DNA of 64,000 nt from Candidatus Woesearchaeota archaeon UBA525 (GTDB taxonomy: Archaea; Nanobdellota; Nanobdellia; Woesearchaeales; UBA525). The notes below the pieces were generated by a model. That model saw only the letters and a program-made list of their open reading frames with translations. It was not told the DNA's origin and ran no database searches. Positions 23,310 through 44,364 of the stretch are shown in pieces. Numbering within the stretch: position 1 is the stretch's first letter; the number at the start of each line of letters is the position of its first letter. A program made the position numbers and the translations under genes. The stretch spans positions 35,862 through 99,861 of the forward strand of contig DAGG01000027.1 of assembly GCA_002498125.1 (NCBI GenBank). The letters run 5' to 3'.

Positions 23310-25604
23310 ATGGACCATTCAAAGCACCTAGCCAGAGACCACCCTACACCGCCCGCTGAAGACGCTCTCTCTGCAAAGCCGGCAGAACAAAGCAAGGTCA
23401 CGAAACTCAGCATCGAGGGCATGCACTGTGCGAGCTGCGCGAACATCATCACGAGAGGACTGAGCAAGGTGTCTGGCGTCACGTCAGCAAACGTGAACTA
23501 CGGCACGCACAAGGCGACAGTCACGCACGACCCCTCGGTCTCCGATGCGCAGCTCATCGCAGCAGTGAAATCGAAAGGGTACGGCGCGAGCACTATAACG
23601 GGCGACGAGGACCCTGAACTGCAGCAGAAACGCGAGCGCGCGGAGTACGATGCCCTTAAGCACCTATTCATAATCTCAACGATCTTCGCCACGCCTGCGC
23701 TCATCCTCGGCATGCTCTTCATGGAGGACAGTTTCCTCTTCATCGGCTACAGCCTGCCGCACATCGCAATCGTACTCTTCCTGCTCGCGACACCGGTACA
23801 GTTCTACGTCGGCGCCATGTTCTACAAGGGCGCATGGGCCGCACTGCGCAATAGCACAGCGAACATGGATTCGCTCATCGCGCTCGGCACGAGCGCCGCA
23901 TACCTATACAGCGTCTATCTCGTATTCGTCGCAAGGGAGATGACACAGTACTTTGAGATCAGCGCAGTGCTCATCACACTCGTCATCATGGGCAAGCTCC
24001 TCGAGAGCAAGGCCAAGGGGAGGACTTCGGAGGCCATCAAGAAGCTCATGGAACTCTCACCGAAGACCGCGACAGTCCTGCGCGACGGACAGGAGATGGT
24101 CATCGACATCGATGACGTCAAGCCCGGCGACATCGTGCTCGTCAAGCCCGGTGAGCGCGTTCCTGTCGATGGAATGGTCGTCGAAGGGTCGTCATCTGTT
24201 GATGAGAGCATGATCACTGGCGAGAGCATCCCTGTCGAGAAGTTAGAGGGGAGCGAAGTAATCGGCGGCACCATCAACAAGAACGGCAGTCTGAAGTTCA
24301 AGGCGACGAAGGTCGGCGCAAACACGACGCTCGCCAATATCGTTAAACTCATCGAGGACGCGCAAGGCCAGAAGGCACCCATTCAGCGTTTCGCCGACTT
24401 GATCAGCAGCTACTTCGTACCGATAGTGGTCGTCATTGCGCTCTTGACTTTCAGCACATGGTACTGGATGATCGGCCAACCATTCGGCTTCGCGCTCCAG
24501 ACCGCTATCGCTGTGCTCGTCATCGCATGCCCCTGCGCGCTCGGCCTCGCCACCCCCACCGCCATCATGGTCGGGACAGGTAAGGGAGCGCAAAACGGCA
24601 TCCTCATCAAAGGAGGAGAGGCGCTTGAGACTGCGCACAAGGTGCGCGCAATAGTCTTCGACAAGACCGGTACACTCACGGAAGGCAAGCCGCAGGTCAC
24701 TGACATCGTCCCGCTCCACGGCCTCTCGGAGAAACAATTCCTGCACATCGCTGCGAGCATCGAAAAGCACAGTGAGCACCCGCTCGCAGACGCTATCGTG
24801 CGCCATGCGCATGAGCACAAGGTACCGCTCGTCGCAGCGACGCACTTCAAGGCCATCCCTGGTTACGGCATCACCGCAAATGTGGAACACCATACGTTCC
24901 ATTTCGGTAACCTACGCCTGATGCAACAGCAGAACGTGCACATGGATGAGTCGTTGCAGCAGGTCGCGGATCTTGAGAGCGCAGGCAAGACAGTGATGTT
25001 CCTCGCCACAGGCCAAAAACTTGCAGGTATGATCGCTGTTGCCGACACCATCAAGGAGACGACGCCGGCAGCAGTCGCGAAGCTGCGCAAGATGCACGTC
25101 GAGGTCTACATGATCACCGGCGATAATCGCAGGACAGCGGAAGCGATAGCGCGCCAGGCGGGCATCAAGGCAGAGAACGTGTTCGCAGAGGTCCTGCCGC
25201 AGGACAAAGCAGCGCATGTCGCCAAGCTTCAGGAAGGCGGCCGCAAGGTCGCGATGGTCGGCGATGGCATCAACGATGCTCCAGCTCTCGCCAAGGCCGA
25301 CATCGGCATCGCGATGGGCAGCGGCACTGACGTCGCGATGGAGACTGGTAATGTGGTGCTCATGCGTAACGACCTCTCGGACGTACCGCGTGCGCTGCGG
25401 CTCTCGCGGCTCACAATGAGCAAGATCCGCCAAAACATGTTCTGGGCGCTTATCTACAATATTATTGGCATCCCTATCGCTGCAGGACTGCTCTACTACA
25501 GCACCGGCTGGCTGCTCTCGCCGATCCTCGCTGGCGCTGCGATGGCGCTCAGCTCGGTGAGCGTCGTGAGCAACTCGCTGCTGCTGAAGGCAAAGAGACT
25601 ATAG
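23310..25604 (+). CDS. copA: copper-translocating P1B-type ATPase
   Basis: N-terminal HMA (GMHCASC); CPC (IACPCALGLATP); DKTGTLT; GDGINDAP. Confidence 0.9.
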   Translation: MDHSKHLARDHPTPPAEDALSAKPAEQSKVTKLSIEGMHCASCANIITRGLSKVSGVTSANVNYGTHKATVTHDPSVSDAQLIAAVKSKGYGASTITGDEDPELQQKRERAEYDALKHLFIISTIFATPALILGMLFMEDSFLFIGYSLPHIAIVLFLLATPVQFYVGAMFYKGAWAALRNSTANMDSLIALGTSAAYLYSVYLVFVAREMTQYFEISAVLITLVIMGKLLESKAKGRTSEAIKKLMELSPKTATVLRDGQEMVIDIDDVKPGDIVLVKPGERVPVDGMVVEGSSSVDESMITGESIPVEKLEGSEVIGGTINKNGSLKFKATKVGANTTLANIVKLIEDAQGQKAPIQRFADLISSYFVPIVVVIALLTFSTWYWMIGQPFGFALQTAIAVLVIACPCALGLATPTAIMVGTGKGAQNGILIKGGEALETAHKVRAIVFDKTGTLTEGKPQVTDIVPLHGLSEKQFLHIAASIEKHSEHPLADAIVRHAHEHKVPLVAATHFKAIPGYGITANVEHHTFHFGNLRLMQQQNVHMDESLQQVADLESAGKTVMFLATGQKLAGMIAVADTIKETTPAAVAKLRKMHVEVYMITGDNRRTAEAIARQAGIKAENVFAEVLPQDKAAHVAKLQEGGRKVAMVGDGINDAPALAKADIGIAMGSGTDVAMETGNVVLMRNDLSDVPRALRLSRLTMSKIRQNMFWALIYNIIGIPIAAGLLYYSTGWLLSPILAGAAMALSSVSVVSNSLLLKAKRL

Positions 25605-27629: not shown

Positions 27630-28784
27630 TTAGATATTCCTGCACAGCCGCAGCATGTGCTCCTGCTCGTCGACCTCGACGGCCCAGACCTGGACCTTCC
27701 CCTTGGAGAGCTGGACAGGCATCTCCTTCTCGAGCGCCGCTGGGTCGATCTCTATGCCGAACTCCTGCAGATCACGCAGGATACGCTCGCGCATGCGCGG
27801 GGCGCGCGGCATCCCGCCTGAGAGCACGATGCAGTCAACTCCACCTAACACTGCGAGGTACGCACCGAGGTACTTGCGCATGCGGTAGGCGAAGAGGTCA
27901 AGCGCGAATGCTGCAACCTTATCGCCAGCGCGTTCGCGCTGAAGGAGCTTACGCACGTCCGGCTCGCCGGCGATACCCTTGAGACCGCTCTCCTTCTCGA
28001 GCATGTCGAGCACAGCCTCCGGAGTCATGCTGGCGTGATGCGCGAGGTAGATGACCGCCGCAGGGTCGATATCGCCGCTGCGCGTCCCCATGACGAGGCC
28101 TTCGAGCGGCGTGAGTCCCATTGATGTGTCAATGCTGCGGCCGTCCTTGATTGCGCATAGGCTCGCGCCGTTTCCCAACTGACAGGTGATGGCGCGAGAG
28201 AACTTGCGGCCGGCAAGACGCTCTGCCTCAAGCAGCATCGCTTCGTGCGCGAGACCGTGGAATCCATAGCGGTAGATGCCGTGCTTGCGCGCGACATCGA
28301 TTGGTATCGCGTAGGTGCGCGCGACCTCCGGCATCTTGCGGTGGAACATAGTGTCGAAGCAGGCGATATGCTTGGCCTCGGTGCTCTGCATGAACGCCTT
28401 GATGAGCCCGATGCTCGGCGGGAGATGGAGCGGCGAGAGTGGTATGAGTATCTCGAGTTCCTTGAGGATGTGAGGCGTGACGATGACGGGAGCATCGTGG
28501 TACTCGCCGTGCGTCACGCGATGAATGATGCGTGTCGGCCGCACGCTGTCGCAGAGCTTGAGTATGACCTTACCTGCATGGTTGTAAGTCGCGACCTTCT
28601 CATCGCAGGTAATCACTTCGCCGCGATGGCGCGCCTCAATCACCGTTTCGCCGCCTATCGCGTCGATGACTCCGTCAAGGAGGATATCATCGTGGCCTCC
28701 ATGACCGCGTTCGTAAAGGCGGAACTTCACGCTCGAGCTGCCAGCATTCAGGATGAGCGTGGGCTCAATGCCACTTCCAGCCAT
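27630..28784 (-). CDS. ackA: acetate kinase
   Basis: ILNAGSSSVKF N-terminus and YGFHGLAHE motif; start trimmed to the internal MAGSGIEPT Met. Confidence 0.85.
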   Translation of the reverse strand: MAGSGIEPTLILNAGSSSVKFRLYERGHGGHDDILLDGVIDAIGGETVIEARHRGEVITCDEKVATYNHAGKVILKLCDSVRPTRIIHRVTHGEYHDAPVIVTPHILKELEILIPLSPLHLPPSIGLIKAFMQSTEAKHIACFDTMFHRKMPEVARTYAIPIDVARKHGIYRYGFHGLAHEAMLLEAERLAGRKFSRAITCQLGNGASLCAIKDGRSIDTSMGLTPLEGLVMGTRSGDIDPAAVIYLAHHASMTPEAVLDMLEKESGLKGIAGEPDVRKLLQRERAGDKVAAFALDLFAYRMRKYLGAYLAVLGGVDCIVLSGGMPRAPRMRERILRDLQEFGIEIDPAALEKEMPVQLSKGKVQVWAVEVDEQEHMLRLCRNI

Positions 28785-31119
28785 GGACGCCCTCCGGGTC
28801 GCTGCCGTGGCGCAGGATGTATGCCTTGTGCTCAAGGATCTTGCTCTCGTACGTTGCGACCAGGAGCTCTGCCTTGGCGGCGACCTGCGGGTTAACCCTC
28901 GCGCCGTGGCGGATGAGGCGCATGGCGAGGTGGTACCTGCTCACGTTGTTGCGGATGAACATGTCGAATGGCGTCGTGGTCGTTCCCTTCTCTATGTAGC
29001 CGTATACGTGGAACCGATCGTTCCTCGGCCTGTCGAAGAGTATCTGCTTCACCGCGCCCGGATAGCCGTGGAATGTGAACACGACCTTGCGGTCCAGCGG
29101 GAAGAGCATGTTGAATGTCGCCTCGTCCATCGCGTTCGGGTAGAACGGGTTTACGCCCAGGCTATTGAGCTCGCTCACGTTCACGAACTGCACGCGCAGC
29201 TCAGGCACCTGGTGGCGGAGCATCATGATTGTCGCGAGCGCCTCCTGCGTCGCGTAGTCCCCGCATGCAGCGAGTACCACGTCAGGATTCTGCGCACTGG
29301 CGAAGTCCCAAACGGCTGCACCAGTGAGGCACTGCTCGACTGCCTGCTCATACGTCCGCCACTGGCGAATGAGCTGCTTATCGGCGACGATGACATTCAC
29401 GCGGTTCGTGCTGCGCAGGCTATGGTCCATCATCGCGAGCGCCATGTTCGCGTCAGCGGGGAAGTACAGCCTGATGTTGTGCTCCTCACGCGCCTTGTTC
29501 AGCAGCGTGCTGACGAAGCCGGGGTTCTGGTGGCTGAAACCATTATGGTCCTGTCGCCAGCAAACGCTCGTGAGGATGTAGTTCAAGCTCGGCACTGGGG
29601 TGCGCCACTTGCGCTGCTCCGAGAGCTCGATGAACTTGATGTACTGGCTCACCATGCTATCCACGATGGGCAAGAACGCCTCGTAGCTCGGGAATATGCC
29701 GTGGCGACCAGTGAGGTTGTACCCCTGGAACCAGGACTGGAGCGTGTGCTCGCTGAGCATCTCCATGACGCGGCCGGTCTGGCCAATCTTCGCGTCCTTG
29801 GCATCCTCTGTCGGCCACACGTAGACCTTGTCAGTGATGTCCAGAACAGCGTCGAGCTTGTTGCTCGCGAGTTCGTCAGGGCTGAATATCCTGAAGTTGT
29901 GCTTGTCGGCGTTCAGGATGAGGACGTGCTTGAGGTACTGGCCGATGGTCGGTGTGCTCGCGCCGTGGACGCTACCGGGGCGGTCGAGCTTTATCTCAAG
30001 GCGGTGCGGGTCAGGCAGCGTGAGCGGGATGCGCATGTTGCCGCCCAGCGCGTTCGGGTTGCTGCCGATGCGCAGGTCACCCATCGGGACGTAATCGAGG
30101 AGGTCGGCAGGGATTTTTCCACCTGGGAAGATGTCATGCGGCTTGTAGCTCTTCAGCCATTTCTCCACCTCCTTGAGCGACTCATGGTTTGTCTGGCAGT
30201 CCTTGGCCGGCACCTGGTGGCTGCGGAAGCTGCCTTCGACCTTGTGCCCCTCGTGCATCTTGACACCAGTCCATCCTTTTGGCGTGCGCAAGAGAATCAC
30301 CGGCCACTTCGGGCGCGCGATTGGTTTGCCGCTGCGTGCGGTGTTCTGGATGCGCTTGATGCGCTGGTAGGCATTCTCTATCGCCTCGCCCATCTCCTTG
30401 TGGTCCGGGCCGACGAACAATGGCTCATAGCCGTAACCGATGAAGAGGCTCTTCAGCTCCGCATCGCTCATTGTCCCGTACACTGTCGGGTTGCTGATCT
30501 TGAATCCGTTGATGTGGACGATAGGCAGCACCGCGCCGTCAATCTTCGGGTTGAGCCATTTGGTGCTATGCCACGCTGTGGCTGTTGGTCCTGTCTCTGC
30601 TTCACCGTCACCGACGATGCATGCTGCGATGAGATCAGGATTGTCGAGCACTGCGCCAAAAGCCGTGCCGAGCGAGTAGCCGAGCTCGCCGCCTTCGTGG
30701 ATGCAGCCCGGGACGCCGGGGTTGAGGTGGCTCGGGAACCCTTCTGGCCAGCAGAACATCTTGATGAGATTGCCCATGCCTGCTTTGTCGTGCGTGAGCT
30801 GTGAATAGTAGGGCTGTAGGCTGCCTTCGAGGAAGTTGTTCGCGAGGATCGCAGCGAAGCCGTGGCCTGGTCCTGTGAGGAGGAGCACAGGCTGCTCATG
30901 CTTCACGATCATGATGTTCAGGTGGGTGTAGATGAAGTTGATGCCTGGGCACGTGCCCCAGTGGCCGAGGAGGGAATCTTTGATATGGCTTGGCTTGAGC
31001 GGCTCTTCAACGAGGAAGTTGTCCTTCAGGTAGATGCTCGCCGCTGCGAGATAATTGGCCGCTGTCCAGTACTTCTGTGCCCAATCGAGCTCCTGCTTAG
31101 AGAGAACCAATCCCCTCAC
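28765..31119 (-). CDS. xfp: xylulose-5-P/fructose-6-P phosphoketolase
   Basis: GHWGTCPG signature; 784 aa; collinear with known Xfp. Confidence 0.9.
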   Translation of the reverse strand: MRGLVLSKQELDWAQKYWTAANYLAAASIYLKDNFLVEEPLKPSHIKDSLLGHWGTCPGINFIYTHLNIMIVKHEQPVLLLTGPGHGFAAILANNFLEGSLQPYYSQLTHDKAGMGNLIKMFCWPEGFPSHLNPGVPGCIHEGGELGYSLGTAFGAVLDNPDLIAACIVGDGEAETGPTATAWHSTKWLNPKIDGAVLPIVHINGFKISNPTVYGTMSDAELKSLFIGYGYEPLFVGPDHKEMGEAIENAYQRIKRIQNTARSGKPIARPKWPVILLRTPKGWTGVKMHEGHKVEGSFRSHQVPAKDCQTNHESLKEVEKWLKSYKPHDIFPGGKIPADLLDYVPMGDLRIGSNPNALGGNMRIPLTLPDPHRLEIKLDRPGSVHGASTPTIGQYLKHVLILNADKHNFRIFSPDELASNKLDAVLDITDKVYVWPTEDAKDAKIGQTGRVMEMLSEHTLQSWFQGYNLTGRHGIFPSYEAFLPIVDSMVSQYIKFIELSEQRKWRTPVPSLNYILTSVCWRQDHNGFSHQNPGFVSTLLNKAREEHNIRLYFPADANMALAMMDHSLRSTNRVNVIVADKQLIRQWRTYEQAVEQCLTGAAVWDFASAQNPDVVLAACGDYATQEALATIMMLRHQVPELRVQFVNVSELNSLGVNPFYPNAMDEATFNMLFPLDRKVVFTFHGYPGAVKQILFDRPRNDRFHVYGYIEKGTTTTPFDMFIRNNVSRYHLAMRLIRHGARVNPQVAAKAELLVATYESKILEHKAYILRHGSDPEGVHGWKWH

Positions 31120-33656: not shown

Positions 33657-33767
33657 GAACTGATTGCGTCTAACTTCTCAGGCAGCTCGCGCAGTGAATG
33701 GATGAGATCCGTGCACTACTCGTTCTGCGTGATGAACATCCGGCAGACCTTGAGGAATATGCCCTCC

Positions 33768-34739
33768 CTACGTATCCCGCCCCTCGATGATGGCGCGCGG
33801 CAAGGATGTGATGAAATGTTCAGTGTAACCGACGAACACCTCGTAGTTCCTGACGTCCGGCGAGAGTACGGCTTTGAACTCCTTGAAGATGCGGTGGAAC
33901 TCAGAAGTGCTTCCCACGGCGATGTACGCGAGGATGTCCCATGTGCCAACAGTTTTGACGCAGCGAGCGACGGCGGGCGTGGTCCTCACGAACTCAAGCA
34001 CCCGTTGCTGGTAGCGCTCGTCGAACTGCTTCATCTGGACCGCGATCGTGTACCACTGCCGACCCATGCGCTGCGGATCGGTGATGATGGTGAAGCGCTT
34101 GATGATACCGGTTTCCTTGAGGCGCTTGATGCGTTTGATGACCGCGTCAGGACCGATCTCGATACGCTTCGCTATATCGACAGCGCTCGTTCTCGCATCA
34201 TCAGCGAGGAGGCGCAGTATGGCGAGGTCTGTCGCATCGAAGGACTTCACGGCAGAGGACCGCGCCTTGCCCCACCTCACGACCACGAGCGTGTCCCGCT
34301 CCGAGATAATGTCGGAGTACTTGGTGGATATGCGCATGAGGATCGTGTCGAGCTCCTCGAGGTCCTTGGCCAGCAACCTCCACTGCACGTCCCATTTATC
34401 ATTGTACTCGAGCAGCGCCTCGGTGTTCGGGTGCTGGCGCAGCTCCTGCATGAGCTCCCGCTGCCGTTGCAGGCTCACTTCGTCGAGGACCATGAAGACC
34501 TTGCAGACGAAGTAGCCGAAGACACTCCTGTCAATCTCAGCGTAGTGCTTCCTGATGACGCGGAGCTGCTCCATGCGGCGCACCCTATAGGTGACTGTGT
34601 CCCTGTTCATCCCCACTCGTTTGGAGAGGCCAGATACCGGCATCCTCGAGTCCTCCCGCAGGAGGGCGAGGAGCTTCATGTCCTTCACATCTAGTTTCAC
34701 CGGCAGGTCTCCGTCGGGATGCGCAGCGCTTTTAGGCAT
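33768..34739 (-). CDS. tandem (duplicated) Lrp/AsnC-family transcriptional regulator
   Basis: Two complete HTH+RAM units (LLALLREDSRMPVSGLSKRVGM... and LAILRLLADDARTSAVDIAKRIEI...). Confidence 0.7.
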   Translation of the reverse strand: MPKSAAHPDGDLPVKLDVKDMKLLALLREDSRMPVSGLSKRVGMNRDTVTYRVRRMEQLRVIRKHYAEIDRSVFGYFVCKVFMVLDEVSLQRQRELMQELRQHPNTEALLEYNDKWDVQWRLLAKDLEELDTILMRISTKYSDIISERDTLVVVRWGKARSSAVKSFDATDLAILRLLADDARTSAVDIAKRIEIGPDAVIKRIKRLKETGIIKRFTIITDPQRMGRQWYTIAVQMKQFDERYQQRVLEFVRTTPAVARCVKTVGTWDILAYIAVGSTSEFHRIFKEFKAVLSPDVRNYEVFVGYTEHFITSLPRAIIEGRDT

Positions 34740-34953
34740 TGATGCACACTAACCGCCTCAATTATATAAAATTATCTGGAAATACGAATAATACAGTTGA
34801 ATATTTCTTATATCTCAACACCATCACCTGAATCAAGCGGAGCAAAGGAGACGCAGAAGGCGTCTGCCCGACGCCAAAAACCGCTAATAGTACAGTAACT
34901 ACTACGAGAGAGTGACATAAGGGAATATTTTTAAATCGAAGGGATACCCCCAG

Positions 34954-35619
34954 GTGAACGACATGACCTACATGAACAGGTTGAAGGAACGCGCGAAGCA
35001 GCTCGCGAACAACGTCCGTCAGAAGGTAGAGGATGAAGGCGGCCTCGGCAACATCGTCGAGAAAACCACCCTCGAACTCAGCGAGAAGGCAGGAAAAGCT
35101 GCCGGACACGTGGCCAAAGCGATAGACGGAGCAATCAACTACGAAGGAGACAGCCTCAACCCGAAGGATATCTACAACGCAGGCACTGTCGACGTAGGTG
35201 CGACCGCGCAGAAGGCACGCGAGTTCGCAGGCAAAGGCGTAACACACACACGTACAGCCGCAGCGACGATAACTGATAAGGTCAAGACAGCAGCAGAGGA
35301 CGCGAAACACTACGCATCGGAGGTCAACGGAGCGATCAACGACATCGCGACAGGGCCAGATCACGTCGTGGGCATCGGCAACCGCTTCTACTGGGTCCGC
35401 TCGCACAGCAAGCTCGAGATCGGACAGGTGAAGCAGTACCTGACGACAATCTCCGCAGCCATCCCGCCGGCGACGACGGGCAGGCAGGAGGTCCTCACCT
35501 TCATCGCCGACAACGCAATCAGCACCGAAGGCAGGCTCTACGATCTCTGGGAGAAGCAGAAGATGCCAGAGCTGAAGGCGCTGACCTATATCGCGAATGC
35601 GCGCAACACTCATACATAG
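34954..35619 (+). CDS. hypothetical protein (operon gene 1)
   Basis: GTG/ATG start downstream of a TATA-like ATATTTTTAAAT; no motif. Confidence 0.45.
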   Translation: MNDMTYMNRLKERAKQLANNVRQKVEDEGGLGNIVEKTTLELSEKAGKAAGHVAKAIDGAINYEGDSLNPKDIYNAGTVDVGATAQKAREFAGKGVTHTRTAAATITDKVKTAAEDAKHYASEVNGAINDIATGPDHVVGIGNRFYWVRSHSKLEIGQVKQYLTTISAAIPPATTGRQEVLTFIADNAISTEGRLYDLWEKQKMPELKALTYIANARNTHT

Positions 35620-35645
35620 TACTAGGATACTAGGAGGAAACAACA

Positions 35646-36755
35646 ATGGCAGAACTCAAAATTCAGAAGGAGATGTCCAAGCTAGAGACGCTCCGCGCGC
35701 AGCGCAAGCGCGACCTCTCAGGGGTCTACAGTGGCCTCGACCAGAGGACCAACGACCTGCTCGGCGCACGCAACAAGGAGCAGGCACGCACCACGGCCCA
35801 GAGTCATCGCGCGAAGCTGGATGAAGGACTGAGCCACTTCCAGAGCTACAGGCAGGACATCGCGACGCTGAGCGCAGGGCTCCAGGAGAACCTCGAGCTC
35901 TACGTTGAGTTTGCGAACAAGTTCGAGAACTACCAGGGCAAAGAGAAGGTCGTGAAGGTCATCGGTATGAAGGGCCTCGCGAACAAGTGGCGCCACCAGC
36001 GCATCTCCACACAATCGCCCAAGGAGAACCTGCAGCAGATCGTCGACTACGGCATGCAGCTCGTCCGCGAGCTTGAGGATGTCCGCGAGGAGGCTATCAA
36101 CCAGTACGAGAGCCTGCAGGGCAGCGTCGACATGATCACTGTGAAGCTTAAGGATTACCAGCCACTCGAGGCAGAGCTCAAGGAGCGCCTCGATGCGATG
36201 AAGGCAATCTACGACGAGAAGAACGGGAAGTTCAAGAACGCTTCACCGACGGAGCAAGTCACTCTCGCAGACGAGATGAACAACCTGCACAAGCAGTTGA
36301 CCACAATCCAGGACGAGTACGACACCGCCCTGACTGTGTACAGCCAGGCGCAGCAGGCGCTCCAGAGCAACATCGAGTCGCGCGACGCGTTCGACCAGAT
36401 GCAGCGCGACCTCGGACGCCAGGCGAACATGATCCAGGAGAAGCTGGAGAACGTCGTCAAGATCTACGAGGCAGCACCCGAAGCGCTGAAGGTGATGATG
36501 AAGACGAAGGGCACGGAGACGCTCGACAAGAGCATCAACTACGCCACAAGTGAGTCCGTGAGGACCATCATCAAGGCAGCCAGCGGAGTCAACGACGCCA
36601 CCCTCGCACGCGAGGAGATCCAGCTCGTTGACGCTGCTGTAGTGCGTGAGTTCATGGACGAGACCACGCGCCGCAAGAATGACTTCGAGGCCCGCTATCT
36701 AGGCATCCGCGAGAAGGCACTGGAGAGCCAGGCCGAGCGCTACGCCGCGAAGTGA
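35646..36755 (+). CDS. long coiled-coil protein (operon gene 2)
   Basis: SD ggagg upstream; 369 aa, heptad-rich throughout. Confidence 0.5.
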   Translation: MAELKIQKEMSKLETLRAQRKRDLSGVYSGLDQRTNDLLGARNKEQARTTAQSHRAKLDEGLSHFQSYRQDIATLSAGLQENLELYVEFANKFENYQGKEKVVKVIGMKGLANKWRHQRISTQSPKENLQQIVDYGMQLVRELEDVREEAINQYESLQGSVDMITVKLKDYQPLEAELKERLDAMKAIYDEKNGKFKNASPTEQVTLADEMNNLHKQLTTIQDEYDTALTVYSQAQQALQSNIESRDAFDQMQRDLGRQANMIQEKLENVVKIYEAAPEALKVMMKTKGTETLDKSINYATSESVRTIIKAASGVNDATLAREEIQLVDAAVVREFMDETTRRKNDFEARYLGIREKALESQAERYAAK

Positions 36756-36780
36756 GCATCCTATTTTTTTCCTTTCCATC
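36756..36780 (+). terminator. T-rich stretch (possible intra-operon attenuator/terminator)
   Basis: CTATTTTTTTCCTTTCC after the stop. Confidence 0.3.
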
Positions 36781-36806
36781 AATGTTAGATAGAAGAATGT
36801 GGGAAC

Positions 36807-37943
36807 ATGAAAGAACGCATGAGAATCAAAGATAGGCCATACCTCGCCTTCGTTGTGCCTAAACCGCAGGTGACATCGCAGGACGACGGCAAGACGCTCT
36901 CTCCTGATGAAACGCTCGAGCACCTGGAGATGATTCTACGGCCGCTGCGCATGCTCCCAAGGTTCGTGTATGAGAAACTGCCGCAGGACGGCGGCGAGAA
37001 CACCCCGCTGCGCGAGTACATGATCCGTGTGGCGGACACCATCGAGGCCATCGGCATGAAGACACGCATGGAGCTGGAGCTGCCGCGCGACACGCACTTC
37101 CCGTGCATGATTGACCCGTCGGCATCAGGCTATCCGCTCTTCGCGCGCGACCTGCGCATGATGGTCACGGACAAGAACCAGGCAGTGGAGCGCCTCTCCG
37201 CGATGCGCACCGACAGCATCCTGGTAGAGGACGCGATCCATGCAATCATGCGCGGCAAGTTCCCTGCGGATGCAGTGTATGAGAAGCTTAGACGGGAGTA
37301 CTTCGGCCATCTGCAGGAACTCGCGATGCCCGAGCCGGTCAGGCTCCACGCCCCGACCTTCGTGAAAGAACAGGGCGCGTTCAGCCACTGGACAATGTCG
37401 GCGGAAAGGCTCGACGACCACCATAACATCCCGCGATTCTACACGCTCAGCTACAAGATACCGAACCGCTCCGTGAACAACCCGGCGGTGCACAGCGCGT
37501 TCAATGAGCGCGTCGAACGATCCTTCACCGTATCCACGGACCTCGAACTGCAACTCATGGCAGGCGAAGTAGAGAGCATCGAAGGCATCCAGCTGCAGGC
37601 GATTGAGCGCTACGACCTCGGCCCGCTATTCAACAGGTTCACTAACAACAGCCCTGAGGTACAGCGCCTCCTCGACGCAGGACGCAAGGACGACACCATC
37701 ATGGTGTACAAGAAGCAGACAGTGCATCGCAGGGGAGAGACCCCGAAACAGGGCCTCATGGATCGCCTGAACGCATTCCTCAGCGGCGACCACAGCGATG
37801 GTATATTCAGCCCTGTCGTGTCATCACCATACTACGCACTCATGCCGCGCCGCCTCATAGAGAAGGTGCACCATCTCGACATAGACCTCGGTCAGAATGT
37901 CAGAATGTACGGAATAACAAGCACAGGTGATCTCGTTGACTGA
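36807..37943 (+). CDS. hypothetical protein (operon gene 3)
   Basis: 378 aa; no motif. Confidence 0.45.
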   Translation: MKERMRIKDRPYLAFVVPKPQVTSQDDGKTLSPDETLEHLEMILRPLRMLPRFVYEKLPQDGGENTPLREYMIRVADTIEAIGMKTRMELELPRDTHFPCMIDPSASGYPLFARDLRMMVTDKNQAVERLSAMRTDSILVEDAIHAIMRGKFPADAVYEKLRREYFGHLQELAMPEPVRLHAPTFVKEQGAFSHWTMSAERLDDHHNIPRFYTLSYKIPNRSVNNPAVHSAFNERVERSFTVSTDLELQLMAGEVESIEGIQLQAIERYDLGPLFNRFTNNSPEVQRLLDAGRKDDTIMVYKKQTVHRRGETPKQGLMDRLNAFLSGDHSDGIFSPVVSSPYYALMPRRLIEKVHHLDIDLGQNVRMYGITSTGDLVD

Positions 37944-39912
37944 AGCCAATAGCCCTATCGACATCAACCACGAACTCGTGGAGAAGTACCACAAGGAAGT
38001 AGAGGAGACTCTCGTCACCTATGACTTCGGCAACAAGCGTCACTCGCTCCCCGAGCTCATGAACAAGATCGACAAGAAAGAGCCCTATGTCATGAGCGAC
38101 ATCGAGCGCGACAGCTACCTCGCGATCCGTGAGGGCATGCAGGTCTTCCGTGCGACAGCGCAGCTCGTCGGCGAGAAGGTCGGACTCAAGGAGAAGCTCG
38201 TCAACCTCGGATCGAAGGACCCTGAGCTGCTCAAGCTCAAGGACTTCTGCTACAGCTACGCCACGTTCGTGGCATCGAAGTACGTCGTGAAGAAGCTCGA
38301 CATGATTGTTGCAGCGAACAACGACGGCGGCATCCCCACCCCTGAGATGGACCTGGCCGCCCTCAAGCTCAACAACACGAGCGCCGAGAGCCTGGCCATG
38401 CGCCACCTGCTCGCGCCGGTGTACAAGTCATTACTGGACCATCTCGACGACAAGGACGCAGAGTACGGCCACCCCGTCCAGTTCGCGATGGAGATGCGCG
38501 AGGTCTTCACGCAGTACGCGAAGCTCGCGGCGGAGAAAGAGGACCAGTACCCGGACCTCGACCGCCACGTGAAGAACTACCAGTTCCGCGTGCTGGACGA
38601 CTTCATCGAGCTCAACGGCTTCGAGGACAAGAGTATCCCCGTCGCGAAGAAGCAGCAGGCGGCGAAGCTCACATTCCAGCCCATCAGCCCGAACGAGATC
38701 GTCGGCAACAAGATGGCGAAGCGTAAGATTGCGCGTTACATGGACCGCATCGCGCTCTACAACGCCACACAGCAGAACAACCCAATCCTCGACCTGGGAG
38801 GCCTCTCGTGGACCAACCTATTCGACGGCCCCCCAGGCACAGGCAAGTCATCCATGTTCCGCATGGCCATGACCATCCTGCAGAAGAGGGCGGAGCAGAT
38901 CGGACTTCCGTATAACGTCGTGATGGTCGACCAGTCGATTAAGGACGAGTTCTACGGCAAGACAGGTAAGATTCTGCTCAACAGGCTCGAAGTCACTAAT
39001 GACCCAAAGGCACTGAGCGTCGTAGTGTTTGACGACATCGACCTGCTCACGAGCAAGCGCGACGACGCGCAGGGAGCGGACAACGACGTCAACAACATCA
39101 TCATGCAATACCTAGATGGCGTCTTCACCGTCCGCCGCGGCAACGTAATCAACTTCGCGGCGACGAACAAGCCGACAGGTCTGGACGACGCGATGCGCAA
39201 CCGCTTCAACGACCGCCTGCTCATCGATGGCCCGATAACGAAGGAAGACTTCGCTGACCTCCTCGTGCTCCGCCTCGGCAAGCTCCAGAAGAGCGGCCTG
39301 GTCACCATGGACATCGGCTACAAGCCGTTCCAGACGCAGGACCAGATGGACGAGCACGGCCACTGGAGCGGCGGCAAGGTCGCCGAGTACATGGCCGAAG
39401 AGTTCGAGAAGCGCAAGGACTCGACATTCTTCAATGTCGGAGAGTTCTTCGCTGACCTCAAGAAGAAGAACCCGAAGATCAGCGGACGCTCAGCAAACGC
39501 CATCATCGAGGCCATCAAGGAGCGCTCAGCGGACTTCGATATCCCTGATGATTGGTTCGAGAACCGTGCGGCCTTCATCGAGCAGCCGTATGACACGCAG
39601 CGGGCGATGCTCAAGGATCTGTACGTAAAGATTGACGGCAGCATCTTCTTCCAGGAAGCCAAGCGCTACTTCGATTCGGAGGAGCGTTATGCGGAGAACG
39701 AGGCGAAGAGCGCCGTGGAGAGGAACTACAACGCCCACGCATGGGATGTCCAGGCGAGGATTCAGGTGCTGCGCGACCAGATAGTCGGCGGCGACAAGTC
39801 GAACATGGCTGAGCTCGCTGGCCTCGAGGCGCAGATGGAAGCGATCCAACAGGACAGGATAAAGACTGTGAGAGAAGTTGAGAAGCACGCAAAGGAGGAG
39901 AAGCGCAGATGA
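37927..39912 (+). CDS. AAA+ ATPase, classical/meiotic-clade-like, with long N- and C-terminal extensions
   Basis: Walker A GPPGTGKS, Walker B VVVFDDIDLL, sensor-1 ATNKP, second region of homology DDAMRNRFNDR; 661 aa. Confidence 0.8.
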   Translation: MISLTEANSPIDINHELVEKYHKEVEETLVTYDFGNKRHSLPELMNKIDKKEPYVMSDIERDSYLAIREGMQVFRATAQLVGEKVGLKEKLVNLGSKDPELLKLKDFCYSYATFVASKYVVKKLDMIVAANNDGGIPTPEMDLAALKLNNTSAESLAMRHLLAPVYKSLLDHLDDKDAEYGHPVQFAMEMREVFTQYAKLAAEKEDQYPDLDRHVKNYQFRVLDDFIELNGFEDKSIPVAKKQQAAKLTFQPISPNEIVGNKMAKRKIARYMDRIALYNATQQNNPILDLGGLSWTNLFDGPPGTGKSSMFRMAMTILQKRAEQIGLPYNVVMVDQSIKDEFYGKTGKILLNRLEVTNDPKALSVVVFDDIDLLTSKRDDAQGADNDVNNIIMQYLDGVFTVRRGNVINFAATNKPTGLDDAMRNRFNDRLLIDGPITKEDFADLLVLRLGKLQKSGLVTMDIGYKPFQTQDQMDEHGHWSGGKVAEYMAEEFEKRKDSTFFNVGEFFADLKKKNPKISGRSANAIIEAIKERSADFDIPDDWFENRAAFIEQPYDTQRAMLKDLYVKIDGSIFFQEAKRYFDSEERYAENEAKSAVERNYNAHAWDVQARIQVLRDQIVGGDKSNMAELAGLEAQMEAIQQDRIKTVREVEKHAKEEKRR

Positions 39913-41159
39913 GCCGCACACTGCAAGGCGAACAGATGCTCTTCAAGAGGCTCTTCCCCATCGAGGGTGAGCTCGTGGAGAGCTACAATCGCGCGCTCAG
40001 GAAGGTCACCGGTATGGAGACGAAGCTGTCCGCGTTCCATGTGGACCGGCGCGGAAAGTCTCCTGAAATCCAGCGCGAGCTGGGGCCGGACTACCTGCAG
40101 GCGGGTCATGCGAGGTACATGATCGTGGTCTCGCCTGAACAGGCAGGTATGGACATCATCCATCCTGAATTCTCGTTCGACGAGACGCTCTTCGAGAATC
40201 TGTACCAGAACCACCTCAGCGGTATCAGTATCGTCACGCGCGTAGATGGCCTGTACGGCGAGCTCGAGGACGGGCTGCGCGCCTACTCTGCCGACGATAT
40301 CACAGGCATCAAGTGGACGAAGACCCGCCTACACACACCATCAGGATTCATCACGAAGGCACGTGAGCTCAAGACGCTCATCGAGCAGCTTGAAACCGAT
40401 CCCTCCCTCCTCGTGAAGGAGAAGAGTGCTCACCTACGCAAGATGGTCGCGCTCGCCGAGGAGGTCGGAGACATCCGCGGCTACAGCATCACGAACATCA
40501 ACGCGACGCGCGATGTCGGCAGCTTCAGCACAACGCTGCATGGCGGGATGTATATCATCCGCGACGATGGCAACGGCACGATCAAGCTCAAGCGCCCCGG
40601 CCGCAGGGCCACGCGCAGGGAATCAGCAGTGACCGGACGCTCCTACGTCATCAGCGAAGCCGAAGTCTCATCGCCTGGCGTGACGCACATCCCACTCAAC
40701 GACGGCAAGCAGGTCATTGAGTTCCTCGTGCACAACCATCTCGCAGGCATCGATCCATCGCTCATCCCCGCGAGGCTGACGCAGATGGAAGATCTCATGC
40801 TCCTGCAGGCGCAGCACCCTGTAGCCAGGATGAACAAGTATGAGCGCCAGCAGGCGCTCGGCAAGGAACGCATGACACACATGCACCAGGAGCTGCTCGA
40901 TCTCAACAGGGCAATGGTCTACGGCGACGCGGTCGACCAGTATGATCTGGATGCAGGAGTCGTCGCCGCGCTCCTCACGCCGATAGAAGGCCCGCACGCG
41001 GGCGTCGTTTCGACGCTCACCACACACCTGTGGCCCCACGACTACACGCGCATGGCGAAGCACGACCCGTCACGCCTCGAGACGATATTCTCTGGCGCTG
41101 ACACGAACACTCAAGATTACATCATCAAGAAGCTCAAAGGTGAAGAATATGCCGACTGA
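39909..41159 (+). CDS. hypothetical protein (operon gene 5)
   Basis: Overlaps the upstream stop (ATGA); 416 aa. Confidence 0.45.
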   Translation: MSRTLQGEQMLFKRLFPIEGELVESYNRALRKVTGMETKLSAFHVDRRGKSPEIQRELGPDYLQAGHARYMIVVSPEQAGMDIIHPEFSFDETLFENLYQNHLSGISIVTRVDGLYGELEDGLRAYSADDITGIKWTKTRLHTPSGFITKARELKTLIEQLETDPSLLVKEKSAHLRKMVALAEEVGDIRGYSITNINATRDVGSFSTTLHGGMYIIRDDGNGTIKLKRPGRRATRRESAVTGRSYVISEAEVSSPGVTHIPLNDGKQVIEFLVHNHLAGIDPSLIPARLTQMEDLMLLQAQHPVARMNKYERQQALGKERMTHMHQELLDLNRAMVYGDAVDQYDLDAGVVAALLTPIEGPHAGVVSTLTTHLWPHDYTRMAKHDPSRLETIFSGADTNTQDYIIKKLKGEEYAD

Positions 41160-41988
41160 ACACAATTGGACATATGATATGGCAGGTCACTACGGCGCGG
41201 GTATCGTGCTATCGCTCGCCGATTACACAGCATACCGCCTCCGCTCGAAGAGCGAGGACCGCATCGCGCAGAAGAAGCGCTGCCTCGAGAGCATCGAGAC
41301 CATACTCAATGCGCAGGATATGAAGAACGTCACTGAAGAGACGCCGGCAATCCCGAGCGCCCCGAAGATCGACCGCGAATCCATGCAGTACGCGCTCAAT
41401 GTCGCGGAGGTCAAGCGCTACCTGACCATGGAGGACATGATCAAGGAGCCTTCGATATTCAAGCGCCTCGGCAACTACTTCCGCAGTGTGCCGCGCCACG
41501 AGCTCATCAACCCGCTCAGGTGGACGAACACACTCTACTTCGCGATGACCGCGGAGCTCGCGGAGAATGTTGTGGCCTGGGACTACTACACCAAGACTGT
41601 CGGGGACAGCCCGATTGGCGGTCTTGCGCGTAACGTCTACCAGGTGCCTGCATTCTTCGTCGGCCTCCAGACCGGCAAGGCCATCCGAAAGCCAATCGAT
41701 TGGATGGTGAAGCCCTCCGACGAAAAGAAGGCGGACAGGATGATCAAGGACCTCGTGCTCGATACGCCGATCGTTCAGATCGTGACAGAGTACGAACCGT
41801 CGGACAACGTACAACACCAGCTCGACGCGAGAGGCATGAGCTTCAATGCGCTCGCTGCACCGTTCAGCCGCGGCCTCAAGCAGCTCGCCGGCAGCGTGAC
41901 CGAATACGGCAAGCGCGCTGAGGCAAAACGCAAGGCGGAATCTGACGCGCGCATCAGCGGTTTCGACGATCTCACGAAGGATAGGTGA
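41140..41988 (+). CDS. hypothetical protein (operon gene 6)
   Basis: Overlapping, co-directional; 282 aa. Confidence 0.45.
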   Translation: MKNMPTEHNWTYDMAGHYGAGIVLSLADYTAYRLRSKSEDRIAQKKRCLESIETILNAQDMKNVTEETPAIPSAPKIDRESMQYALNVAEVKRYLTMEDMIKEPSIFKRLGNYFRSVPRHELINPLRWTNTLYFAMTAELAENVVAWDYYTKTVGDSPIGGLARNVYQVPAFFVGLQTGKAIRKPIDWMVKPSDEKKADRMIKDLVLDTPIVQIVTEYEPSDNVQHQLDARGMSFNALAAPFSRGLKQLAGSVTEYGKRAEAKRKAESDARISGFDDLTKDR

Positions 41989-43694
41989 ACAATATGGGCA
42001 ATGACGTCATGGACAGGCTGAACGCGCACCTGAAGAAGGAACGCAAGCAGCAGGACCTCTCCACCAAGGCAGGCAGGCTGAAGCGGAACCTGAAGAGCTT
42101 CGGCAAGAAAGCAGCCATCGGTGCAGCAATCCTCGGGACGCTCGGAGGCATCGGCACCTACTATCTCGGCAAGGATTACGTGACAAAGAGGCAGAACTAC
42201 CCTATCAGAAGGGTCCTCTACCACACGCAGGAGACCATGAACTTCGCTGGCGGCGAAGAGGAGTTCACATCACGCTACGCCGACCGCCATGAGGAGACGA
42301 CGATCCAGCGCGGCAGCATGGACGGCACGAAACTCGGCGACCCGCTCGGCTACATGCGTTATACGACAAATGATGAGCTCATGAACTACCGCCTTGAGGA
42401 CCAGGACAAGAACCAGATCGCGTTCGCGTCAGAGAAGCGCGAGCACCTCCAGGCAGGCCCACGCATAAGCGGCGGCATTGACTTCCAAGAACTCCAGGCG
42501 GACCTACTCGTCGGCAAGAAGGGCAAATTCATCACTTACACCTTTATGCCGGAGCGAGGCCTTGAGAACAAGCAGCTCAACTTACTCATGGACGACCACG
42601 GGGAGCTGCACCTAATGAACGAACTCGTCACCCGCCGCACGTGGGGGATTGGTTGGCTCAAGGGCGACGTGTTCCGCAGTGGCGCACGCATCAGCGAGTT
42701 CGCAGACACGCCGGAGAATAAGAAGATCAGCGCACAGCTCATCGCGGCAATCAAGGACTACAACAGCCATATCACACCATCGCAGCGCCAGCGCGAGAAG
42801 CTCGTGTATGAAATGATGTCGCTCAGCGAGAAGCTCGAGCGCGTGCCTGTGAGCGTGAGCCACGAGGACGGCATCATCGACTGGCTTCCACAGGAGTCAA
42901 CGACGTACCTCTTCAGCGACCCGTCGCTGGCTGAGCGCGCCAGGCTCCTCCTCCCGCAGAACTACAAGGGGACGAACACTCCCCGCATGCCAGAGAATGA
43001 ATCGTGGAGCGAACTCAAGTCCCACGGCATCAAGGACGGCGAAACCATCAAGCTGCGCGTGGAGAACGACTGGGACTTGTGGCCAGGCAACTACTACGGA
43101 CTCAACAAGATCGCCTTCGGCAAAGCACCGAACCTGCTTCGCCCCTTTGCGCACTACAACAACGGCGGCTACAGCATCATGGACCGCCGCGGCGAGGTCG
43201 CACGCGTGGAGATAAAGGACTTCATCCTATACTACGGCGACGACACCCTGTTCAAGTACTACCTTGACAAGAATGGCGACGGTCGCATCGACGAGAAGAA
43301 GGAGCTCATCGGACAGGTGCTCTTCCATATCAGCCAGGACGAGAGGAAGGACCTAGAGGGTGTCATCGGCAAGGGCCATGCAAAGAAGGACGTCACGAAG
43401 CGCTACAACTACTCGTTCATGGCAGGCAGTGACTGGGAGACAAGAAATGAGGACTTCTACCTCTGCAACACCATCGAGAGCTTCATGATGAACGAGATCA
43501 ACCGCGGCTACGGCAAGCACTCGTTCCTCGGCTATGTGAACAATCAGCGTTCGGCCATCATGATGCTCGAGACCAGGAGCCTCCCGAACCTCGCACGTGC
43601 GTTGACGAACGAGAGTACGCTCGTGATCAAGGGCGACCACATCGCGCTCATGCGCGCGGCCGGACGCGATTACGTCGACAAACGCGTCGAGTAA
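41985..43694 (+). CDS. membrane-anchored protein with EF-hand-like loop (operon gene 7)
   Basis: N-terminal TM (AAIGAAILGTLGGIGTYYLG); DKNGDGRIDEKKE resembles a Ca-binding loop. Confidence 0.45.
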   Translation: MNNMGNDVMDRLNAHLKKERKQQDLSTKAGRLKRNLKSFGKKAAIGAAILGTLGGIGTYYLGKDYVTKRQNYPIRRVLYHTQETMNFAGGEEEFTSRYADRHEETTIQRGSMDGTKLGDPLGYMRYTTNDELMNYRLEDQDKNQIAFASEKREHLQAGPRISGGIDFQELQADLLVGKKGKFITYTFMPERGLENKQLNLLMDDHGELHLMNELVTRRTWGIGWLKGDVFRSGARISEFADTPENKKISAQLIAAIKDYNSHITPSQRQREKLVYEMMSLSEKLERVPVSVSHEDGIIDWLPQESTTYLFSDPSLAERARLLLPQNYKGTNTPRMPENESWSELKSHGIKDGETIKLRVENDWDLWPGNYYGLNKIAFGKAPNLLRPFAHYNNGGYSIMDRRGEVARVEIKDFILYYGDDTLFKYYLDKNGDGRIDEKKELIGQVLFHISQDERKDLEGVIGKGHAKKDVTKRYNYSFMAGSDWETRNEDFYLCNTIESFMMNEINRGYGKHSFLGYVNNQRSAIMMLETRSLPNLARALTNESTLVIKGDHIALMRAAGRDYVDKRVE

Positions 43695-43710
43695 ATCCTC
43701 TTTTTTCACT

Positions 43711-44364
43711 CTATTTTGACATCTTCTCCACTTTCTCAGGTAGCTCACGCAGTGAATGGATGATGTTCTCGCCGCGTTTCTCTCCAGAACGGTCAATGAG
43801 TATCGCTTTCGCACCTGATGCGACCGGGACTGAGAAGTCCGACACAATATCATCGCCGACGTGGAGGATATTATGCGGCTCGGCGCCGAGACGCTCCATG
43901 ACAAGCCTAAATGCGCTCGGGTCCTTCTTGAGCACGCGCAACTCCGCCGGCGCAGAGACAATCTCTTTGAAGTACTTACGCAAGCCTAGCGCGTCGAGCT
44001 TCATATTAAGGAACTTCGGCTCCGAATCTGAGACGATAACAAGACGGTACTCCTTTGAGAGCATCTCGAGCACTGGGATCACATCACTGTACACGAAGAT
44101 ATGATGGCGCATACGCTCCATCAGGCTCTGCCAATCATGCAGCGCAAGACGCTTGAACCACATGTCGATGTCTGTCCAGTTCTTCACGTACTCTATGTAG
44201 AGCGCCTTGTAGTACTCAGAGTAGACCTCCTTCTTCGCAGTCTCAAGGTCAACACCGTGCGTATCAGCGTAGAGCTTGGGAATCTCCGTGTTCCAGATGA
44301 TTTTGTCGAACTGCTTCTCCGCCAGCGTGCCGTCGAGGTCGAAGGAGATGCAGGTGATGGGCAT
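43711..44364 (-). CDS. HAD-superfamily hydrolase
   Basis: ISFDLDGTL motif I and VGDDIVSD motif IV. Confidence 0.65.
   Translation of the reverse strand: MPITCISFDLDGTLAEKQFDKIIWNTEIPKLYADTHGVDLETAKKEVYSEYYKALYIEYVKNWTDIDMWFKRLALHDWQSLMERMRHHIFVYSDVIPVLEMLSKEYRLVIVSDSEPKFLNMKLDALGLRKYFKEIVSAPAELRVLKKDPSAFRLVMERLGAEPHNILHVGDDIVSDFSVPVASGAKAILIDRSGEKRGENIIHSLRELPEKVEKMSK

Follow-up and report, generated by a model that had tools for sequence, protein, structure and literature searches.

What kind of machine is encoded by seven tightly packed genes of which only the AAA+ ATPase had been recognised? The question is raised by a stretch of 64,000 nucleotides (nt) from Candidatus Woesearchaeota archaeon UBA525 (contig DAGG01000027.1; hereafter, the window), in which an operon of seven genes, here termed A to G, is arranged around the ATPase encoded by gene D. 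A first-pass annotation, made without database searches, had compared the operon with the Vps4/ESCRT-III and PspA membrane-remodelling machines and had named a defence module as the alternative. Following the analysis presented here, we tentatively favour another reading, namely that the operon encodes a membrane-associated, AAA+-driven protein-remodelling machine of an undescribed kind. This reading is carried by the gene order in 38 related loci, the near-universal overlap of C and D, and the full set of motifs of a threading AAA ATPase in D.

Layout of the operon and its ATPase

Gene coordinates were taken from the open reading frame (ORF) listing of the 64-kb window and from a second, independent gene caller applied to the identical public contig (Logan SRR1026849). 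The latter reproduced genes A–G and the regulator, except that A, F, and G start slightly further downstream. The listing confirmed the coordinates of the seven co-directional genes at 34954–43694 given in the first-pass annotation, and those of the divergent regulator of 323 amino acids (aa). The features are as follows, where the promoter region and the two T runs were read from the sequence and have putative roles:

33768–34739, minus strand: tandem Lrp/AsnC regulator, divergent from the operon, assigned by domain matches
34740–34953, no strand assigned: shared AT-rich divergent region with TATA-like boxes, putative promoter
34954–35619, plus strand: A, accessory protein; start of the gene caller, ATG at 34963
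35646–36755, plus strand: B, 369-aa coil-rich helical protein
36764–36770, plus strand: T7 run between B and C, possible attenuator or terminator within the operon
36807–37943, plus strand: C, 378-aa globular protein of an unannotated family
37927–39912, plus strand: D, 661-aa AAA+ ATPase; likely start, TTG at 37936
39909–41159, plus strand: E, 416-aa DUF6638 protein, ATGA-coupled to D
41140–41988, plus strand: F, 282-aa protein; likely start, ATG at 41149
41985–43694, plus strand: G, 569-aa membrane-anchored protein
43701–43706, plus strand: T6 run, 7 nt past the stop of G, putative terminator

A and B are separated by a 26-nt gap, with AGGAGG preceding B, and B and C by a 51-nt gap that contains the T7 run. 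C and D overlap by 17 nt if D starts at its GTG and by 8 nt if it starts at the TTG; D and E share an ATGA overlap with GGAGG upstream; E and F overlap by 11–20 nt; and F and G share a GTGA overlap or, with the start of G at ATG 41994, are separated by 5 nt. The tight coupling described initially therefore stands, but the four ATGA/TGATG overlaps claimed with it become three certain overlaps and one possible; only the D/E junction is literally ATGA, and overlap of F and G depends on the start.

D comprises an N-domain of ~290 aa, an AAA core (residues 298–433), and a conserved extension that terminates in a C-terminal coil. It matches PF00004 at 2.5e-15 (57.5 bits, cut-off 21.2), and its Walker A motif, GPPGTGKS, is invariant in the alignment. 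The close clade shows no variation in sensor-1 residue N414, in arginines R424 and R426 within ATNKP...MRNRF, or in the FYG/YYG pore loop, and the arginine pair and the pore-loop tyrosine are retained in the distant, proteobacterial, and phage clades described below. D thus has the P-loop, the PF00004 match, and the second region of homology (SRH) with arginine fingers and aromatic pore loop of a classical AAA ATPase, which confirms that the operon is built around an AAA+ enzyme of this clade. The departure lies in Walker B, which reads hhhhDD(I/V)D (hhhhDDID in the window): the catalytic glutamate of the classical hhhhDE is replaced by aspartate in every D examined, and D369 and D370 are invariant, also in the proteobacterial and phage relatives.

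The first-pass annotation had placed D with the Vps4-like, meiotic-clade ATPases. Its best relatives in the PDB are instead AFG2/SPATA5, Cdc48, and VAT (E 7e-15 to 1e-11), and no Vps4 chain is found among its best 60 PDB matches. Pfam gave no match of D to MIT or Vps4_C at E ≤ 0.1, and none to AAA_lid_3; the N-domain, for which an MIT relationship had been considered, found no PDB relative as a profile, and the C-terminal extension had no significant Pfam match. The NCBIfam scores of D for CDC48, CdvC, IteA, and PAN all fall at 32–37 bits and are indistinguishable, and we accordingly assign D, on its sequence, to an orphan lineage of the classical AAA clade that is not specifically Vps4-like.

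Conservation across archaea, bacteria, and a viral contig

Related loci were collected from an alignment scan for E homologues (one genome per species), an alignment scan for D (JGI metagenomes), and one 6.5-Mb bacterial contig. The resulting 38 loci, from archaea and bacteria, show the order B-C-D-E-F-G (tblastn) in essentially all cases that are long enough; they include Methanosarcinales metagenome-assembled genomes, an unclassified archaeon, a Desulfococcaceae genome, and the KSB3 bacteria Vecturithrix, UASB14, and UASB270. The conserved order extends to loci of a distant clade with 31–36% identity in D. Names of Woesearchaeota and Nanoarchaeota are also attached to homologues of G, and names of Acidobacteria and Desulfobacterales to homologues of E. 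Recurrence of this order in 38 related loci puts the arrangement far beyond chance and shows conserved synteny across both domains, in support of the initial description of a tightly coupled operon in which a coil-rich protein and membrane-anchored partners accompany an AAA+ ATPase.

The junctions are conserved as well. C and D overlap, typically by 8 nt, in nearly all loci, and overlap of D and E is frequent. In most loci, B and C do not overlap but are spaced by tens of nt up to about 200 nt, with oligo-T runs in the archaeal-type loci (T runs of at least five in L002, L006, L008, L011, L012, L015, L018, L020, and L025). A jackhmmer search recovered A-like genes from 10 non-redundant loci; they share the strand of the operon and either precede B or follow G, so the conserved unit is six genes (B–G) plus a movable accessory A. 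This was overlooked in the first-pass annotation, as was the retention of only the soluble B–E beyond the clade. In Bacterium UASB270/Candidatus Vecturithrix granuli (L009), the cluster is split, with B-C-D-E together and F and G non-adjacent; G homologue U27_04243 and E homologue U27_04427 of the same organism lie on different scaffolds. No viral relatives of the close clade were found.

In the distant subclade that lacks B beside the cluster, a PAP2-type lipid-phosphate phosphatase gene (PSGH...SRxxxxxHxxxD motifs) directly follows the gene of the G homologue, here G', and abuts or overlaps its stop:

L033, 13281–13922: PAP2 gene
L034, 8938–9618: PAP2 gene
L028, 6479–7141: PAP2 gene

A tblastn search of PLSDB with E led to replicons of Sinorhizobium, Shinella, Rhizobium, and Vibrio that carry DUF6638 genes, which belong to the following clusters:

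Vibrio parahaemolyticus pVP-19-VB00998 (megaplasmid): hypothetical protein (359 aa), hypothetical protein (371 aa), ATP-binding protein (634 aa), DUF6638
S. meliloti: hypothetical protein (362 aa), hypothetical protein (382 aa), ATP-binding protein (638 aa), DUF6638, DUF2333
Sinorhizobium/Shinella clusters: L044, 3653–12517; L045, 4637–11443; L046, 4020–11511

These clusters have the B-C-D-E order of the archaeal operon. The first two Sinorhizobium genes are homologous to B (hhalign 95%) and C (hhalign 96%), the ATPase is 28–30% identical to D over ~600 aa, with the DD Walker B common to both, and the DUF6638 protein is 27–32% identical to E over its N-terminal half. In contrast to the archaeal operon, they are without F, G, and the Lrp regulator, and the membrane partner is DUF2333 or is absent. 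In Sinorhizobium and Shinella, B-C-D-E-DUF2333 is found at a single position of the chromosome, between tdk and fhs (in records of 3.5–4.6 Mb that bear the label plasmid), and the cluster proteins of the two genera are 70–92% identical, with B the most conserved (92%), compared with 78–88% for the flanking housekeeping genes. S. meliloti Ak57 carries an IS4-family (ISRm16) transposase gene between D and E, beside a small endonuclease-domain gene; in Sinorhizobium sp. K101, the endonuclease-domain gene is retained and the transposase is absent. From its numbering near shmR (SMc02726) and choX (SMc02737), SMc02733 may belong to the cluster, which would link the cluster to the ExoS/ChvI envelope regulon. 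A ChvI-binding DNA fragment has been reported inside SMc02733 of S. meliloti 1021 (PMC3687685).

An even more distant module lies on the 359-kb IMG/VR contig IMGVR_UViG_3300035698_035310 (L039, 3794–11278; also L041 and L042), in the order DUF2333, B, C, four small ORFs, D, and E, with no F or G. Its neighbours include SmpB, DnaJ, peptide deformylase, ClpB, and an Apyc1-like gene, and the genes are small and run in one direction; the contig looks like a huge phage that carries the soluble core. The phage-type E had no match among GenBank phages. Since B-C-D-E recurs in Rhizobiaceae, Vibrio, and phage with changing membrane genes, the soluble four-gene core is ancient and widespread, and its membrane partner varies between clades (F and G, DUF2333, plus PAP2). 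That the core and its interchangeable membrane partners constitute an ancient, hitherto undescribed class of ATP-driven machines, present in archaea, bacteria, and at least one huge phage, is in our view possible rather than probable. Such machines would consist of an orphan AAA+ lineage and several folds without a solved relative, and would use ATP hydrolysis in the cytoplasm to remodel membrane or envelope proteins.

A distribution of this kind raises the defence module again, in the form of an anti-phage or conflict system with B-C-D-E as a sensor-regulator core with an AAA+ switch, and F and G or DUF2333 as interchangeable, membrane-disrupting effectors of abortive infection. The family is rare and patchy over very distant phyla of both prokaryotic domains, copies reside on the Vibrio megaplasmid and the viral contig, and the combination of an unchanging core with exchanged membrane partners recalls the modular effectors of defence systems. 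The best PADLOC match of D is IetA (1.8e-11), and the B orthologue of L008 (5700–6863) scores just above the threshold for EAD9 over residues 183–225 (26.1 bits, cut-off 25). EAD9 is an effector-associated adaptor domain described from conflict systems (PMC7159879). The EAD9 score in the L006 orthologue is 18 bits, and the window's B has no match; apart from this marginal hit in two orthologues, B has generic coiled-coil matches in Pfam. The EAD9 match is a weak lead; it may reflect a chance resemblance between helical hairpins or a faint relationship to the adaptors of conflict systems.

Set against these points, the similarity of D to IetA is no better than that to Cdc48, CdvC, or PAN, and neither PADLOC nor PHROG gave matches beyond the AAA core. 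In PADLOC (a 2023 version of the database, with newer systems outside its coverage), D matches IetA, mad8, and TRIP13 through that core, B has a sub-threshold match to the LmuB coiled coil (E 0.078), and A, C, E, F, and G have none. The family scans returned no nuclease, protease, TIR, or similar domain, and the flanks are housekeeping, with no defence-island or mobile-element enrichment among 147 flank ORFs. The Rhizobiaceae cluster occupies a fixed locus and is conserved like its housekeeping neighbours, unlike typical defence loci with their fast turnover. Defence, which the first-pass annotation had ranked second, thus remains the weaker reading, and we consider it rather unlikely.

Partner proteins and proposed mechanism

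All seven proteins were scanned against Pfam, NCBIfam, PADLOC, and PHROG, which matched D (generic AAA) and E (DUF6638), and PDB profile searches with A, B, C, E, F, G, and the D N-domain gave nothing below E 0.002 and nothing meaningful. Of the four proteins in which the first-pass annotation had recognised nothing, C and F indeed have no match and A has a weak apolipoprotein match alone, but E matches Pfam DUF6638 (PF20343) at 4e-23 (82.3 bits, cut-off 27; profile positions 12–216 of 439). This match is confined to the N-terminal half of E, PF20343 is present in all 35 E homologues, and the AlphaFold model of E is confident, with no specific PDB fold match. C drew no Pfam, NCBIfam, PADLOC, PHROG, or PDB match; its family comprises 73 representatives at E ≤ 1e-3 among 1.84 billion proteins (phmmer), the distant relatives from this full search are without Pfam domains, and a word-indexed homologue search returned C itself alone. 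A consists of Gly/Ala/Lys-rich amphipathic helices and a conserved C-terminal domain, and its PDB profile search gave nothing specific. Five of the six core protein families are without annotation beyond one DUF number, and no homology of the non-ATPase proteins to a known pathway was found, the sole match of E being DUF6638.

B had been described as a continuous coiled coil. Heptad-rich windows do amount to 19%, compared with 1% in shuffled sequences, but the segments are broken at conserved Pro/Gly sites; in addition, alignment of the orthologues revealed a conserved C-terminal F..R[YF]...ERY motif. The relationship of B to PspA, ESCRT-III, and TelA is central to a divergent ESCRT-III/PspA plus Vps4 (Cdv-like) membrane-remodelling system, in which B would be the polymer and D a Vps4-type disassemblase. 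A single-ring classical AAA ATPase beside a coil-rich protein and membrane proteins fits such a system, as does a weak NCBIfam CdvC match of D (1.4e-8). Nonetheless, besides the closer affinity of D to AFG2, Cdc48, and VAT, the window's B had no Pfam match to Snf7, PspA_IM30, or TelA at E ≤ 0.1, and its profile retrieved nothing from the PDB at E ≤ 10, including PspA, Vipp1, and ESCRT-III chains. PspA, ESCRT-III, and TelA were likewise absent from the 25 families most matched at E ≤ 1 by eight B orthologues, next to which stood 16 further families with few matching members. Direct comparison by hhalign yielded 1% against PspA and 0.2% against Snf7, as opposed to 95% against the Sinorhizobium B-like protein by the same method, and B was rejected as a PspA/ESCRT-III protein; one subclade, moreover, has no B beside the cluster. 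The Vps4/ESCRT-III or PspA type of machine has therefore failed in every testable sequence feature, the ESCRT-III fold of B aside, and we regard it as highly improbable.

F, which has no family or PDB match, ends in a conserved basic tail (RFDDLTKDR) and contains three segments that are rich in Gly and weakly hydrophobic. The protein at the F position in L019, L022, and the distant subclade (L028, L033, and L034) has segments hydrophobic enough for transmembrane (TM) helices, three of them in the distant subclade, where F was identified from its location and the common C-terminal motif rather than from BLAST. In G, a basic N-tail precedes a single Gly-rich TM helix at residues ~43–61 (nt 42111–42167). 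The N-terminal TM segment is found in all 44 G family members, a quarter of which also have a C-terminal one.

The model of G (pLDDT 88.8) has ~20 beta strands plus helices, and Foldseek found nothing significant with it. Several strands, as called from the model, are polar on both faces, e.g. DRHEETTIQRG and QIAFASEKREHL. Given these two results, we read the modelled G as a large soluble beta shell, not a membrane barrel. The strands that are polar on both faces do not form the continuous lipid-facing hydrophobic face of a VDAC/Tom40/porin-type membrane beta-barrel, which makes such a barrel unlikely. A relationship of G to DUF2333 was rejected (hhalign 3.6%). The loop that had been called EF-hand-like spans residues 428–440 (nt 43266–43304) and reads DxNxDGxID (D428, N430, D432, G433, I435, and D436), with D428 and G433 invariant in 44 sequences. 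Its EF-hand_5 score is 15.7 bits, below the cut-off of 25.9; in the model it sits between beta strands 421–427 and 441–449, and position 12 is Lys in the window instead of Glu. The N-terminal TM segment and the conserved loop of the first-pass annotation were thus upheld, but a canonical helix-loop-helix EF-hand was rejected; the loop fits the pattern of a putative calcium-binding motif of DxDxDG type.

In the membrane-associated machine that we favour, D would form a hexameric ring that threads or remodels protein substrates via its aromatic pore loop. C and E are proposed as fixed cofactors or adaptors of D, since their genes are translationally coupled to it on both sides. B would be an abundant coil-rich scaffold or substrate, and may be made in excess because a possible attenuator separates it from C. 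F, as a polytopic or re-entrant protein whose conserved tail faces the cytoplasm, and G, as a single-pass protein with a large beta-shell domain and a calcium-type loop, would tether the soluble B-C-D-E complex to the cytoplasmic membrane. The complex would be tethered to the membrane, or act on it, via the cytoplasmic tail of F and the N-tail of G, and F and G would receive its mechanical output or couple it to the envelope. A may serve as an optional amphipathic helper, and the tandem Lrp would set expression in archaea. The recurrent membrane partners and the PAP2 link suggest that the physiological role is probably the upkeep of the envelope or of membrane proteins. The analysis establishes the operon with its coupled genes and fixed order, the motifs of D, the membrane-anchored partners, a linked Lrp-type regulator in archaea, a broad distribution of both vertical and horizontal kind, and the absence of relatives among known systems. 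That the proteins form a complex, that it acts at the membrane, in which direction force is applied, and what role it serves are all points that we infer.

In addition to the conserved order and the motifs of D, the constant N-terminal TM segment of G, the TM-like segments at the F position, PAP2 beside G', and DUF2333 in Proteobacteria and phage are consistent with this machine, as are the fixed Rhizobiaceae locus, the Lrp regulator as the only flanking gene to recur, and the restriction of PADLOC matches to generic AAA similarity. Several observations weigh against it. The window's F is weakly hydrophobic (maximum hydropathy 0.88), and the charge bias of G (5.1 K/R before the TM segment, 4.0 after) does not indicate a topology. 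In one metagenomic subclade a nucleoside phosphorylase gene takes the upstream position and B is missing from the cluster, and at the Vibrio locus no membrane partner is adjacent. None of the partner proteins has a recognisable function that would point to a substrate or output of the machine. Judging from the motif, aspartate in place of the Walker B glutamate could mean slow hydrolysis or a switch instead of a processive motor. Finally, the patchy cross-domain spread, the megaplasmid, and the huge phage would also fit a conflict system.

The loci without F and G lend themselves to a further explanation, in which a Cdc48-like unfoldase with novel cofactors serves cytoplasmic proteostasis or complex disassembly, possibly of nucleoid or replication assemblies, and the membrane partners are incidental or substrates. 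The soluble B-C-D-E is the only part retained in Vibrio and the huge phage, the phage core lies among SmpB, DnaJ, peptide deformylase, and ClpB genes, and D is closest to Cdc48 and AFG2. However, phage gene neighbours are weak functional evidence, a membrane protein gene (F and G, or DUF2333) is attached to the core in most clades examined, and neither a protease nor a proteasome partner accompanies the cluster; we consider this explanation improbable. What probability remains falls to explanations beyond these four.

Flanking genes and comparison with known systems

The regulator contains two HTH_AsnC-type/HTH_24 stretches at residues 16–57 and 168–214 (1.9e-23) and AsnC_trans_reg at residues 240–288 (1.3e-9) in Pfam, and its NCBIfam matches are of the LysM/AsnC/LrpA type. 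The two elements of Lrp/AsnC membership, an AsnC-type helix-turn-helix (HTH) and a RAM/AsnC ligand-binding domain, are both present, and with two HTH_AsnC units plus the ligand domain the initial label of a fused two-unit Lrp proved correct. A homologous tandem Lrp, upstream and divergent, was found in six more loci (L006, L008, L012, L015, L018, and L020), and in the flank census Lrp was the sole recurring family (6 of 147 ORFs). No integrase, transposase, restriction, or CRISPR family was among the top families of these ORFs, and no recurring flank gene was found beyond Lrp, A, and, in one subclade, PAP2. The TATA-like boxes in 34740–34953 were read directly as AATTATATAAAATTATC, TTCTTATATCTC, and ATATTTTTAAATCG, the last at about 20–35 nt upstream of the A start codons. 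Archaeal transcription terminates at oligo-T tracts, and the T6 run after G is probably the operon terminator; the next gene, a HAD hydrolase (43711–44364), is convergent.

In the window, the operon is flanked upstream by archaeal Dph6, phosphoketolase, and acetate kinase genes and downstream by HAD, SnoaL, and gyrB, an annotation that bears out the housekeeping flanks without integrase noted initially. The archaeal-type diphthine-ammonia ligase of the window, its archaeal topA, and the PGF-pre-PGF protein listed below mark the host as archaeal. The phosphoketolase gene (1016 bits) stands beside the acetate kinase gene at 27630–31119; this pair is typically bacterial and may therefore have been acquired horizontally. 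Long antisense ORFs occur at 33702–34694 (plus strand; 330 aa, opposite the Lrp gene), 34762–35646 (minus strand; 294 aa, opposite A), 37900–38406 (minus strand), and elsewhere, and the related loci have the same shadow ORFs opposite D, B, and C; these ORFs result from codon composition and are not genes. Three further features of the window are unrelated to the operon:

61809–63971, minus strand: PGF-pre-PGF domain surface protein
13702–15288, plus strand: multicopper oxidase
23310–25604, plus strand: CopA-type copper ATPase

Although AAA+ unfoldases are among the best-studied protein machines, a distinct classical AAA+ lineage has been overlooked. Its Walker B is invariably DD, and it is always accompanied by the same trio of soluble partners, in Methanosarcinales and DPANN archaea as well as in Rhizobiaceae, Vibrio, and a 359-kb phage. 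Two of its protein families (E and G) give confident models without a specific solved counterpart, and the version in Sinorhizobium meliloti, a genetically tractable model, makes the function directly testable. Whatever the outcome (envelope upkeep, membrane-protein extraction, or immunity), it would be a new type of AAA+ system and give roles to orphan families. We found no published function or description of the cluster; DUF6638 appeared in no paper and DUF2333 was mentioned incidentally once. We also found no known system that shares any component beyond the AAA core.

IetAS, which pairs the AAA+ ATPase IetA with the protease IetS, is matched by D in PADLOC and in NCBIfam (3e-8), but the similarity is that of the generic AAA core (33 bits against a cut-off of 510), and the operon has neither an IetS-like protease nor a defence-island context. 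The Vps4/CdvC–ESCRT-III/CdvB and PspA/Vipp1 systems follow a similar logic, in that a single AAA ATPase is combined with a coil-rich helical protein and a connection to the membrane, whereas MIT, Vps4_C, Snf7, and PspA_IM30 were undetected in the operon proteins. PspF is a sigma-54 activator of a different AAA+ clade. Compared with Cdc48 and AFG2, D has a single AAA ring instead of a tandem, an unrelated N-domain of ~290 aa, no AAA_lid_3, and DD in place of DE, and the cofactors encoded by the operon are unrelated to UBX, Npl4, and Ufd1. Nevertheless, D shares with Cdc48/p97/VAT and AFG2/SPATA5 the P-loop, pore loop 1 (FYG, as in AFG2 D1), sensor 1, and the SRH arginines.

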